A stretch of DNA of 64,000 nt from an uncultured Ruficoccus sp. (GTDB lineage: Bacteria; Verrucomicrobiota; Verrucomicrobiia; Opitutales; Cerasicoccaceae). The position numbers were made by a program. The stretch's first letter is position 1, and every line of letters begins with the position of its first letter. This document shows, piece after piece, positions 27,001 through 30,000 of the stretch. The DNA is taken from contig OZ223496.1 of the NCBI GenBank assembly GCA_965140785.1, positions 128,001-192,000 on the forward strand, in the 5' to 3' direction.

Positions 27001-30000
27001 TTGATCACGTTGTGAATCTTGCTCAGGGTGAGGCTGGTACCACTGCGCACCGACAGGCTGGTGAAGAAGGTCAGCCCCTCCAAACCGGCAAGCTTGTCCA
27101 AGTCCGCGCCAAAGTTGACCCCGGTGCTGTTGAGCTGAGTCACGCCCTGATCCTGCCCGCCGACGGGATTGCCCGCCACGTTAAGGGCGAAGGAAACGTT
27201 TCAGGTCGATCCCCATGTCCTCCAGCGCGGGGCGGGCGCCCCAGGCGTCGCCGAATAGGTAGTCGCGCGTGGCCATGTCTTCCCAGAAGGAATCGGGCTC
27301 AGACGCGCTCGTCTCCGTGGCGGTGGCCGCAGGCGTGGCCGGTAAAGCCGTATTCTCGACGGCTGGAGGCTCGGCGGCTTCAAGAACTCCGCCCGCACAT
27401 AAGCACAGGCACAACAAACGAATCGGTAGGGGGGTACGCATCGTTCAAACAGGGGTTGGAGTGGACAGTGAACGAAACCGGCAAGTAACAGAAAATGCCA
27501 GGTTCCGTTATGGGGGTATCGCGTCTCATGCGCTGAGTTTAATCTATACCAGTAAGCCCCCGACTAACAAGATAAATCGTATCCGTTTAACATGACAACG
27601 CCCTAACGGTGCGTCGATTTACCGACTGAAAAACGGCGGCGGGATTTCTCCGGTCAGGCCAGAAAAACGCTCCCGGCGGAAAAGCCTCGCAACCCGCGAA
27701 ACCGGGTCACAGAACGCCGGATTAAAGGCTGCTTGAGTGCGAGCGTACAATCAGCGGCAGCATCTGCCCACGCCGGAATAGCGTGACCTGCCCGCTGCTG
27801 GCGGAAACCACCATCGCGATGCAGTCGGTGGCGATGGAGATGGCGTTGGCCGCGGCGTGACGGGTACCCAGACCGCTGGGCAGCTCGTGGCTGTAGTCCG
27901 GGGCGTGAATCATACTCCCGGCCGCCTCCAGCACACCGTCGCCGTTGATCAGGAACGCCCCGTCGATGAAGGAGAATTCCTTCACCGTCTCGTCCATGAA
28001 GGGATTGAGGATGTTGCGCTCCTCCCGCTCGTAGCCTTGAAAGGGGTTGAGCACGAGCTGCTTCACGTAGGGCTTGATCTTCTCGGCCTCGCCGATGACA
28101 AAGAGCGTGCCGATCGGCTTGCCCTCACGGCCCTCGACGGAGAGCTCGGTGGCGATGCCGAGCACACGCTCGAGGACCTCCGGCTTGACCGAGGCCGGCA
28201 GCATATCGCTCTGGCGGGTGAAGACCGACTGGAACTCCCGCTCTACATCCACCACCACCAGCGTGTCGAACTGATTACTCTGCGGGATGCCTCCGACGCA
28301 GCAGAGCCGCTCGTTACTCTTGATCAGGCCGCGGGTCAGCCCGATGAGCATCGCGCTGCGCAACTGGGAAAGGCGGTTGAAGCCGAACGCGCGCACCGGG
28401 ATAATGGAGTTGAAGGCGCGCTTGGCCTGCGCCACCTCCGAGACTGACTGGGTGACGAGCAGGGTTTTGAAGTCCCCGAAATCGTCGGCGGCGTCCACGC
28501 CCCCGGCAAAGGTATCCCCAAAAACCATGACCGCTGAGCACTTTGCGCCGGTGGCGATCTTGACGGCCTCACGCAGGATGAGGCGGTTAAATTTGTTGTC
28601 CTTGGTGCGCTTCTGGTCGCGCGGCCGGCCAAAGGCGTCAGCCACGTTCTTGCGCAACGTCTCGACATCGGGCGAGGCGATGAGCCGCTCGACCATAGCA
28701 GGCTCCTGAAAAGTCCGCGCGAGCGAGGCCAATACATTGAGGTAGGACTTTTCACGCTCGGAGGCCAGCAGCAGGAAAATCAATCGCAGGTCCTTGTACT
28801 CGCCGTGCCCGTCGAACTCCAGCCCGTCCGGGCAACGTCCGATAGCGAACATGTACGGACGCTTCATCGGGATGCGCACGTGCGGCAGGGCAATCCCGCT
28901 GCCCAGATAGGTCGTCATCGTCTGCTCCCGCTCCAGTAGCTCCTCCAGCAACTGCTTGCGGTTGAACTTCTGGCCGGGCGTGTCGCAGACCTCGAGCAGT
29001 TCCTTCAGCGCACCTTCGAGGTCACGGCTGACCAGGTCGACAATCCGGTTTTTGGCGATGTAACGGTCCAGGCGCATGAGAGACTCAGGGGTTGGCAGTC
29101 GGTTCGGAGGGTGAGGAAACGGAAAAGGGAACGCCGGCGAACATTCGGGCGGCTCGCGGCTCAGGTTCAAACCAAACCGGCGGCTGCCTTCTCAGGCGAA
29201 CGTGCGCTGTTTTGCTTCCCTGGGTTTCTGCCATCCGCTTACTGTCCTAACCTAGCTCTCCCACTTGAGGCCGCCTTTTTTCATCTCGTAGGCGAAGCCG
29301 ACCGTCAAAATAAACAGGAAAAACAGGACCGGCAGCAGAATCGGTAGTTGGCCCACGATGAACTCGCGGTAAACCAGCACCCACGGGATGAGGAAGACGA
29401 CCTCGATATCGAAAAGGATGAACAGCATCGCCACGACGTAGAACTTCACCCCGAAGCGCGGGTGGAATTTGCCGGTGGACACCAGGCCGCATTCATAGGC
29501 GGCATCCTTGGTATAATTGCCCTTGGCCCGCTGGCCGAACATATGGCTGGCGATCAGAATGCCCGCTGCAATCGCAACGGCCAAAACAATCTGAATCAGG
29601 ACGGGAACGTAGGCTTCGACGCTCATGAGCGTTAATCCAAACCAAGCCGGCGCTTTTGGCAAGACGCTTTGTCATCAAAAGCAATCCCGCCCGCGACCTC
29701 GACGAATAAATCCGCATCCCCTCCGCGCGCCGAACTGCCTTATTCTTTTAAGAAGAACGCCAGCCAAATGGTCGGGCGCACTGTTTGTGTCCATCCAATT
29801 GGAGTAGACACTGGCGCGCCCGCCCCTATATCCATATCGGGCATGCCATCCTTTATCCTGCGCCGCTTTGTCTGCCTTTTTCCGTTAGCGCTTCTGATTT
29901 ACCTACTGACTGGCTGCGCCCCCTCCGCCACTCCGTCTCCAGCAAACGGTTCGCCCATGGCAGTGGACTCAGACCCGTCCGTCGAAGCTGAGGAGATTAC

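Follow-up and report, generated by a model that had tools for sequence, protein, structure and literature searches.

An EIIA domain fused to a DacZ-type diadenylate cyclase as a candidate link between the phosphotransferase system and c-di-AMP synthesis

In the window analysed in the present study (the whole stretch of 64,000 nucleotides from contig OZ223496.1 of the uncultured Ruficoccus sp. assembly GCA_965140785.1), one gene encodes a protein in which a PTS EIIA domain is joined to a DacZ-type diadenylate cyclase. This predicted soluble cyclase is most likely the c-di-AMP synthase of the cell, and it seems moderately probable from the sequence comparisons below that its N-terminal EIIA(Ntr)-like domain acts as a receiver, placing c-di-AMP synthesis under the control of HPr~P. 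Such a design would plausibly let nutrient status set c-di-AMP levels. The gene is an ordinary member of a widespread and already catalogued enzyme class, probably the one printed as 'DacD', which we take to be defined by an EIIA domain.

The encoded protein has the three-domain architecture PTS_EIIA_2/DacZ_P/DAC given in a preliminary description of this DNA (Table 1), and all three domains score higher than the Pfam cut-offs (27 bits for PF00359 and 27 bits for PF02457). An alternative TTG start lies upstream at 29170 and would extend the product to 482 aa, but the ATG is favoured because Met1 is invariant in a 44-row orthologue alignment. The adjacency of nuoA to the fusion gene is kept in 8/11 close relatives, and also at loci L216, L228, and L236.

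Table 1. Positions in the window of the fusion gene, its domains and motifs, and the neighbouring gene
Feature	Position	Strand	Basis
Whole gene, EIIA/DacZ_P/DAC fusion, 451 aa	27722..29077	-	Open frame and Pfam; ATG at 29077, stop at 27722-27724
PTS EIIA (Ntr/Fru/Mtl type) domain, residues 14-142	28652..29038	-	Pfam PF00359 (PTS_EIIA_2), 73.3 bits, 2.7e-20
His66 codon, predicted phosphorylation site in ..IALPHVRI..	28880..28882	-	Aligned with the PH of PtsN and EIIA-Mtl
DacZ_P domain (pyruvate-kinase-C-like, presumed sensor), residues 162-283	28229..28594	-	Pfam PF21755, 67.6 bits, 1e-18
DAC (diadenylate cyclase) catalytic domain, residues 313-438	27764..28141	-	Pfam PF02457, 72.1 bits, 3.7e-20
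DGA motif of the DAC domain, residues 372-374	27956-27964	-	Alignment with CdaA
R-H-A where RHR is expected, residues 406-408	27854-27862	-	Alignment with CdaA
nuoA, directly upstream of the fusion gene	29252..29662	-	Pfam Oxidored_q4

The EIIA part is closest in sequence to PtsN among its solved relatives, and its top structural matches were EIIA-Ntr structures (4gqx, 2a0j, 3urr, and 1a6j; target TM 0.75-0.82). Against the PtsN equivalog model TIGR01419 it scored 46.5 bits, below the cut-off of 138.7 bits. The phosphorylatable histidine is present as His66, contained in the motif GSGIALPHVRIP of the EIIA domain, and is kept in 119/139 sampled Opitutales fusions in which the column was covered, in 8/8 fusions checked from other phyla, and in 78 of the 83 rows (the query among the 78) of an alignment that comprised 82 cluster representatives plus the query (430-480 aa), with identity down to about 28%.

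Genes of the PTS were searched for throughout the assembly (4.36 Mb, 50 contigs, 90.85% complete). DAC (PF02457) and PTS_EIIA_2 gave one match each, both in the frame of the fusion, bearing out the earlier statement that it holds the sole DAC and the sole EIIA domain. The other PTS components named at that time were likewise recovered, namely two HPr matches, one EI of 613 aa that has three EI domains and, unlike EI-Ntr, lacks a GAF domain, and one HprK match, located at a contig end, that contains an in-frame TGA. Of the two HPr copies, the one on contig C43 is that conserved across the order (in the HPr alignment of 16 loci, only rows that were clearly HPr were used). PTS_EIIC (PF02378), EIIA-man, and EIIA_1 each gave 0 matches in the assembly, consistent with the reported absence of a PTS permease; the EIIC that had been placed on contig C28 was not recovered with PF02378.

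In the proposed mechanism, EI would autophosphorylate from PEP and then phosphorylate the C43 copy of HPr at His15, and the resulting HPr~P would donate its phosphoryl group to His66 of the EIIA domain. The phosphorylation state may then alter how EIIA and DacZ_P let two DAC domains meet head to head, and with it the rate of c-di-AMP synthesis. A PgpH-type phosphodiesterase would remove the c-di-AMP, whose targets in this strain may include a riboswitch that precedes an accessory trkH gene. The domains and motifs, the single DAC and EIIA_2 matches of the assembly, and the patterns of conservation and of phyletic distribution are observed here; phosphotransfer to His66, any influence on catalysis, and the direction of that influence are inferred. 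Since dephospho-EIIA-Ntr restrains K+ uptake in proteobacteria, the dephospho form is guessed, by analogy, to be the more active one.

Comparative evidence favours phosphocontrol, both in the conservation of His66 and in the genomes from which the EIIA domain has been deleted. Among the Opitutales with EI, His66 was kept in 107 genomes and replaced in 12, and among those in which no EI was found it was kept in 12 and replaced in 8. The EIIA domain was deleted in five genomes (family f37, 4/4, and G128), and a search of these same genomes found no EI, no HPr, and no PF00359 match of any kind; a further EIIA-less form (G145) comes from a genome that has both EI and HPr, so that 5/6 EIIA-less forms sit where EI and HPr are gone. 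In the gene tree, losses of the histidine or of the domain cluster in EI-less lineages, with at least five events in three lineages and three events in roughly 30 EI-positive families, counts that comprise few events in related and hence non-independent genomes.

This pattern of deletion speaks against the main alternative, which we consider rather unlikely, that the EIIA part is a phospho-independent module (for dimerisation, or for ligand or partner binding) tuning the cyclase without phosphotransfer from HPr, with the histidine being structural or ligand-binding. A phospho-independent role also fits poorly with a histidine that lies in the canonical PH motif and is kept across phyla at 28-50% overall identity. 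The presence of HPr in 39/39 genomes of other phyla with the full-length fusion points in the same direction, but the co-occurrence does not discriminate, because HPr is also present in 10/11 genomes with EIIA-less DacZ forms. Other observations are more easily accommodated by a phospho-independent module. The domain persists without the histidine in 20 genomes. These include every sampled member of two families in which EI and HPr are retained and His66 is replaced by Tyr (f5, 7/7) or by Asn or Ser (f30, 5/5), so that signalling through a phosphorylated histidine cannot be universal. In addition, the 12 genomes in which no EI was found but EIIA retains its histidine suggest an additional, phospho-independent role of the domain or another purpose for the histidine. 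Synteny between the fusion and PTS genes was absent as well: at 80 loci of other lineages, no HPr, EI, or HprK gene was found in the 3-kb flanks of the fusion (phmmer, with HPr1, HPr2, EI, and the HprK fragment as queries against six-frame ORFs). For the direct wire from the PTS to the cyclase that had been put forward previously, the conservation of the histidine is supported.

A slimmer chance is given to a reverse flow of information, in which the fusion is mainly an output or sink of the PTS, nucleotide binding at DAC or DacZ_P modulates the phosphorylation or the partners of EIIA, and c-di-AMP synthesis is constitutive. The fusion is the only EIIA_2 not only in this assembly but in most sampled families, so that any EIIA-Ntr-like regulation of partners would need to come from it. 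Nevertheless, the present analysis yielded no positive evidence for such a flow, the usual layout of regulated cyclases has the sensor N-terminal and the catalytic domain C-terminal, and the EIIA-less forms retain the cyclase part.

The cyclase part was also compared with known families. A PK_C-like DacZ_P directly precedes DAC, as in DacZ; a Brocadiia relative also touches PK_C (E 1e-5, 26 bits, slightly below the 28-bit cut-off of that family). The best NCBIfam match was DacZ NF041371 (1.6e-31), and the protein is a relative rather than an equivalog of this family, because it scored 109.6 bits against an equivalog cut-off of 430 and aligned over residues 236-440 only. Shorter homologues of the fusion protein were also searched for, and the search returned only fragments of at most 247 aa, with no archaeal DacZ among them. 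Foldseek matched the DAC fold to CdaA, DisA, and CdaM (E about 1e-7, target TM 0.6-0.69, model pLDDT 83), and the relative placement of the domains is not fixed in the AlphaFold model (pTM 0.58). D372 and G373 of the DAC domain are invariant across 44 aligned orthologues. The RHR motif reads R406-H407-A408, with R and H invariant in the 44 orthologues, and the S-x-E motif of CdaA/DisA (S-E-E in CdaA) reads S-A-S at residues 425-427. Judged on 150 cluster representatives of the DacZ-type family, the third RHR residue is A, T, Q, R, H, E, or V (RHR in 11/150) and the later motif is SES, SQS, SSS, or SAS; because the third residue varies across the family, RHA is taken as a family trait and not as a sign of inactivation. 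That the two departures from CdaA make the fusion catalytically dead, or give it a different product, is very improbable, given that both positions vary within the family, that 143 of the 146 DAC-positive genomes in the 151-genome Opitutales sample have no DAC other than the fusion, and that the assembly also contains both a PgpH-type 7TMR-HD protein and a c-di-AMP riboswitch, whose joint presence implies that the ligand is made. Moreover, the cyclase fusion is kept even in Opitutales genomes of 0.8-1.0 Mb.

With respect to the output, a ydaO riboswitch before trkH had been described, and a c-di-AMP riboswitch was indeed present at C2:40525-40685 (67.9 bits), 73 nt ahead of a TrkH-family ORF. 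Its conservation was not borne out: the riboswitch-trkH element is a strain-specific insertion without counterpart in four same-genus genomes, a rescan of three of these four found no c-di-AMP riboswitch, and the riboswitch was detected in 9/151 sampled Opitutales. Contig C2 was also considered as a contaminant, and this was rejected, as same-genus genomes share 75-88% identity with the first 716 bases of the contig in locus L008.

The fusion protein was matched in 147/151 sampled Opitutales genomes, which agrees with the order-wide occurrence proposed earlier, and the scarcity in other Verrucomicrobiota was likewise confirmed, with a full-length match in only 3 of about 240. However, it is not an Opitutales-specific trait, since full-length fusions also occur in Spirochaetota, Fibrobacterota, Kiritimatiellae, Planctomycetota, and Hydrogenedentes (the taxa of distant clusters being taken from a related-loci search with an 8-row alignment). 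The fusion is a multi-phylum family. The architecture is probably not new either, as cyclases of Opitutae are already in print as class 'DacD', a nomenclature attributed to Corrigan & Gruendling 2013 and found in the legend of Figure A1 in Braun 2019 (PMC6741144). The DacD representatives given in that legend are Lacunisphaera limnophila, Puniceicoccaceae, Coraliomargarita, an Opitutae bacterium, and a Verrucomicrobia bacterium; by taxon names, on which this match is based, these are the taxa that have the fusion as sole DAC in the sampled genomes. Public records also already name these proteins, labelling them 'diadenylate cyclase' or 'PTS sugar transporter subunit IIA'. Our literature search, outside which Galperin 2023, He 2020, Corrigan & Gruendling 2013, and Commichau 2018 lie, found no paper on an EIIA-DAC fusion and no assayed member of the EIIA-fused or DacD class.

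Taken across lineages, the chances seem evenly balanced that a PTS largely devoid of transporters (PEP to EI to HPr) would, in five or more bacterial phyla, write its phosphorylation state onto the sole c-di-AMP synthase through the fused EIIA, such that carbon and energy status would set c-di-AMP, and hence osmotic and K+ physiology, without an intermediate, and that EI-less lineages would then have lost the histidine or the domain. If true, one polypeptide would merge two systems of K+ homeostasis that are used separately elsewhere, namely PTS-Ntr in proteobacteria and c-di-AMP in Firmicutes. For a second messenger as essential as c-di-AMP, how its synthesis is controlled remains a central question, and a cyclase carrying its own PTS receiver would offer a simple example, open to experiment, of how phosphorylation can exert metabolic control. 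Such fusions are found in many lineages from the environment and the gut (Opitutales, spirochaetes, Fibrobacterota, and Kiritimatiellae). To the catalogued class, the present study adds that the histidine or the EIIA domain was lost mostly where EI is missing, though two families that keep EI and HPr also lost the histidine, and that the riboswitch-trkH output is corrected to a strain-specific one.

Among known systems, the fusion shares with archaeal DacZ/CdaZ (DacY; Haloferax volcanii DacZ and Methanocaldococcus jannaschii CdaZ) a PK_C-like DacZ_P followed by DAC and a conserved DGA, from which it differs by the additional N-terminal EIIA domain of about 150 residues and by its bacterial host; bacterial homologues fall in the same branch as archaeal DacZ/CdaZ, according to Braun 2019 (PMC6741144). 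With EIIA-Ntr (PtsN), to which it is nearest in fold and sequence, it has in common the conserved PH motif and a PTS in which no permease was found in this assembly. KdpD and K+ homeostasis are under the influence of both non-phosphorylated PtsN and c-di-AMP (PMC6488665). In contrast to PtsN, the EIIA domain here is not stand-alone, and its output would be a covalently attached enzyme instead of protein partners. Finally, the DAC fold and the DGA motif are those of CdaA and DisA, and the fusion is a single, essential-looking cyclase, as in many bacteria, whereas it lacks both a membrane anchor and a DNA-binding module, has RHA for RHR and S-A-S for S-E-E, and is predicted to be controlled intramolecularly through its own sensor domains.

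The cyclase, an EIIA-DacZ_P-DAC fusion, was encoded by a single open frame whose start was taken as the ATG at 29077 because the Met1 column was invariant in a 44-row orthologue alignment; an alternative TTG start 93 nt upstream would yield 482 aa. Its top NCBIfam match was the haloarchaeal DacZ family NF041371 (E 1.6e-31), which aligned to residues 236-440 only and scored 109.6 bits where the equivalog cut-off is 430; the EIIA part fell below both the fruA and PtsN cut-offs. Among solved structures, the sequences nearest to the N-terminus were PtsN proteins, whose ..G+A+PH.RI.. 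aligned to GSGIALPHVRI, and the C-terminus could be aligned to CdaA. In Foldseek, the AlphaFold model (44 sequences, mean pLDDT 83.2) ranked highest with EIIA-Ntr structures (4gqx, 2a0j, 3urr and 1a6j; target TM 0.75-0.82), followed by CdaA, DisA and CdaM, and its pTM (0.58) and weak linkers (151-159) imply that the model does not fix the domain arrangement.

Positions of the cyclase, its neighbours and related genes (window coordinates or cyclase residues unless a genome, G, and contig, C, are named; G000 is the Ruficoccus assembly)
Feature	Position	Strand	Details
Cyclase ORF	ATG 29077 to stop 27722-27724	minus	single open frame, 451 aa
PTS_EIIA_2	residues 14-142		Pfam, E 2.7e-20, far above cut-off
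DacZ_P	residues 162-283		Pfam, E 1e-18, far above cut-off
DAC	residues 313-438		Pfam, E 3.7e-20, far above cut-off
S-A-S	residues 425-427 (27797-27805)	minus	at S-E-E of CdaA
OprB-family porin gene	25907-27179	minus	two overlapping frames
Porin frame	26223-27179	minus	profile positions 2-169
Porin frame	25907-26758	minus	profile positions 160-245
nuoA	29252-29662	minus	lone gene
MTHFR-like ORF	30974-32197	plus	MTHFR-like ORF of 214 aa (profile positions 3-188 of 287 only) and the 192-aa ORF after it
DAC domain	G000		1 match
PTS_EIIA_2	G000		1 match, same frame as DAC
HPr	G000:C43 and C34		2 matches
EI	G000		1 protein, 613 aa, three EI domains, without GAF
HprK	G000:C33:9538-9978		sole match; in-frame TGA; at contig end
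PgpH-type 7TMR-HD	G000:C2		1, within 821-aa frame
DHHA1	G000		3 matches
c-di-AMP riboswitch	G000:C2		67.9 bits, 73 nt ahead of TrkH-family ORF
Riboswitch-trkH insertion	G000:C2, about 39741-42100 (locus L008, about 717-3081)		beside cysteinyl-tRNA synthetase gene
Cyclase part in G354	G354:C122:11038-11883		inside 840-aa frame
Second DAC domain	G016:C7:19048-19389		493-aa frame
Second DAC domain	G127:C1:4473999-4474349		402-aa frame

The nuoA gene lay immediately upstream of the cyclase in the same orientation, an adjacency found in 8 of 11 close relatives (loci L010-L020) and in the distant Verrucomicrobiota loci L216, L228 and L236, and the two genes may be co-transcribed. The porin gene just downstream, a single 445-aa frame in the same-genus locus L010, was split either by a frameshift (pseudogene) or by an assembly error. 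In addition, the ORF immediately after the MTHFR-like one, 192 aa long, had no Pfam match, and the pair may represent a frameshifted metF.

The DGA motif was present, and D372, G373, R406 and H407 were invariant in 44 orthologues. The third residue of the 'RHR' motif was Ala in the cyclase and Arg in none of 146 Opitutales loci, and it varied (A, T, Q, R, H, E, V and others) across 150 wider DacZ-type representatives, 11 of which had RHR. The S-A-S was typical of the cyclase clade, the DacZ-type family having SES, SQS, SSS or SAS at this position and the fusions of other phyla mostly S-E-S and some S-Q-S. As these positions are variable family-wide, and as the cyclase is the sole DAC protein of almost all Opitutales sampled, is retained even in genomes of 0.8-1.0 Mb and is accompanied in G000 by a riboswitch and a PgpH-type enzyme, the RHA and S-A-S deviations are read as family traits. 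The fusion is very probably the c-di-AMP synthase of the cell.

The G000 assembly (4.36 Mb, 50 contigs, 90.85% complete) bore out what the preliminary description had stated about this genome (sole DAC, sole EIIA_2, EI, HPr pair and riboswitch) apart from an EIIC on contig C28, where no PF02378 match occurred; PTS_EIIC (PF02378), EIIA-man and EIIA_1 were found nowhere in the assembly. The EI gene lay 1.9 kb from the C43 HPr gene, outside a shared operon, and HprK may be broken or merely cut by the contig end.

The output proposed in the preliminary description, a riboswitch before trkH, stood as a real pair in G000 but not as a conserved circuit, and it was missing from the four same-genus genomes. 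RF00379 was detected in at least 9 of 151 Opitutales (G000, 6/7 of family f2 and 2/6 of f22) and in none of the three same-genus genomes of this sample, in a survey with stricter filters and at most 20 candidates scored per genome that possibly missed some matches. The TrkH protein had best matches of only 24-28% identity in these three and two same-family genomes. The DNA of locus L008 matched four same-genus genomes (those three and G474) at 75-88% identity up to position about 716, short of the riboswitch and trkH, and a gathering-threshold Rfam scan detected no riboswitch in the relatives' loci of three of the four (G011, G094 and G474). Contig C2 thus belongs to this genome, in which the riboswitch-trkH unit represents a strain-specific insertion; no trkA adjoins it, and a threonyl-tRNA synthetase-like frame (tRNA_SAD match) lies further downstream. 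PMC6488665 describes KdpD as a shared target of c-di-AMP and of PtsN in its non-phosphorylated form; this shared bearing of EIIA-Ntr and c-di-AMP on K+ control makes the fusion conceptually attractive, although it does not identify targets in G000.

The link between His66, the predicted phosphorylation site of the EIIA domain, and the PTS was surveyed across the order. HPr, the EI N-terminal domain and PTS_EIIA_2 were found in 129, 124 and 139 of the 151 genomes, respectively, and the orthologous locus was fetched from 146 of the 147 genomes with a match (all but G026, whose match was weak) and scored at the His66 column. His was kept in 119/146 loci and replaced in 20 (Tyr 12, Asn 4, Ser 3, Cys 1), and the column was uncovered in 7, namely G005 (contig end) and six truly EIIA-less forms. 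Where EI was found, His was kept in 107 and replaced in 12; where it was not, the numbers were 12 and 8. The EI-less Opitutales were small genomes of 0.8-1.4 Mb (f4, f8, f19, f37 and part of f39), and five of the six EIIA-less forms (f37 4/4, G128) came from genomes without an EI, HPr or PF00359 match, the sixth (G145) being divergent (37% identity) in a genome with EI and HPr. In a FastTree gene tree of the DacZ_P and DAC part (142 rows; seven dropped, namely the two pieces each of G018 and G123, the partial G005 and G141, and the paralogue G057b), f8, f37 and f4 formed one clade, so their EI loss was probably a single event; f19 and G128 were separate EI-less lineages, and f5 was sister to the His-keeping f33.

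Losses of His or of the domain thus numbered at least 5 in three EI-less lineages versus 3 (f5, f30 and G145) in roughly 30 EI-positive families, a pattern expected from relaxation once the phosphodonor is gone and hence supporting a functional PTS link. It is no proof, as kin genomes are non-independent, the events are few and the exceptions substantial: f5 (7/7 Tyr) and f30 (5/5 Asn or Ser) kept EI and HPr, and twelve EI-less genomes retained His. Some f5 and f30 genomes have stand-alone EIIA proteins, which may now serve as phosphoacceptors in place of the fusion. Regarding HPr itself, the weak matches in two small, EI-less f19 genomes (L257 and L258, from G119 and G138), without His15 or Ser46 context (..DLDY.. 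/ ..DIDY.., ..NANNLL..), look like degenerate HPr-like proteins, and HPr of f4/g5 kept both His15 and Ser46, yet EI was not found.

Outside Opitutales, HPr occurred in all 39 genomes with a full-length fusion and in 10 of 11 with EIIA-less forms; being equally common with the latter, its presence fits the link without singling out the fusions. In 80 loci, the 3-kb flanks of the fusion contained no PTS gene. In the proposed mechanism, HPr-dependent phosphorylation of His66 would control c-di-AMP synthesis, and a c-di-AMP synthase controlled in this manner is, as a whole statement, the most likely mechanism, held with moderate confidence.

Within Opitutales, the cyclase was matched in 147/151 genomes (G000 included), the match usually covering residues 1 to about 445, and a DAC domain was present in 146, exactly one in 143 of these; the fusion is therefore the ordinary, usually sole, cyclase of the order. 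Second, higher-scoring DAC domains were detected in two Opitutales (G016 and G127). G030 (f30, 99% complete, 8 contigs) had neither a DAC domain nor a fusion match and carried EI, HPr and a stand-alone 185-aa EIIA, making it a possible c-di-AMP-free member. In a sample of 301 Verrucomicrobiota, matches outside Opitutales comprised three full-length ones (G153, G157 and G240), the cyclase part in G354 and otherwise stand-alone EIIA only.

Further afield, 1.84 billion cluster representatives yielded 316 matches at E <= 1e-30, and among the best 150 of these, 82 were 430-480 aa long, with identity down to about 28%. Scanning one genome per species with 8 distant proteins gave 80 loci, in spirochaetes (Spirochaetaceae, Spirochaetales, Sediminispirochaetaceae and Marispirochaeta), Kiritimatiellae, Pontiellaceae, Fibrobacter, Fibrobacteraceae, Chitinispirillaceae, Chitinivibrionia, Brocadiia, Fuerstiella, Hydrogenedentes and other Verrucomicrobiia, and in 52 the match spanned residue <=25 to residue >=431. 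All eight distant fusions scanned had PTS_EIIA_2 and DAC above cut-off and retained the PH motif, with DacZ_P above cut-off in 3, below in 3 and not reported in 2. Since full-length loci span several phyla, the fusion is a multi-phylum family and no Opitutales invention, and the order specificity claimed in the preliminary description cannot stand in the form given, in view of its presence in spirochaetes, Fibrobacter relatives, Kiritimatiellae, Brocadiia and Hydrogenedentes.

The class name DacD reportedly originates with Corrigan and Gruendling in 2013, and its architecture is presumably EIIA plus DAC. Braun et al. 2019 (PMC6741144) list 'DacD' with five representatives (Lacunisphaera limnophila, Puniceicoccaceae, Coraliomargarita sp., Verrucomicrobia bacterium and Opitutae bacterium) and note that the DacZ/CdaZ branch also contains bacterial homologues whose N-termini are PK_C-like, and the Galperin census, as cited in PMC12901056, comprises 22 families. 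Full-text searches, judging by the listings and passages seen, returned no paper on an EIIA-DacZ fusion; in public records, orthologues already go under the names 'diadenylate cyclase' and 'PTS sugar transporter subunit IIA'. With DacD in print (PMC6741144) and orthologues annotated, the novelty asserted in the preliminary description cannot stand in the form given; what is new is the pattern of His or domain loss versus EI loss, with the f5 and f30 exceptions, and the finding that the riboswitch island is strain-specific. The G000 cyclase is intact and a typical representative of the EIIA-fused, DacZ-type predicted cyclases, a class that is already catalogued and multi-phylum.
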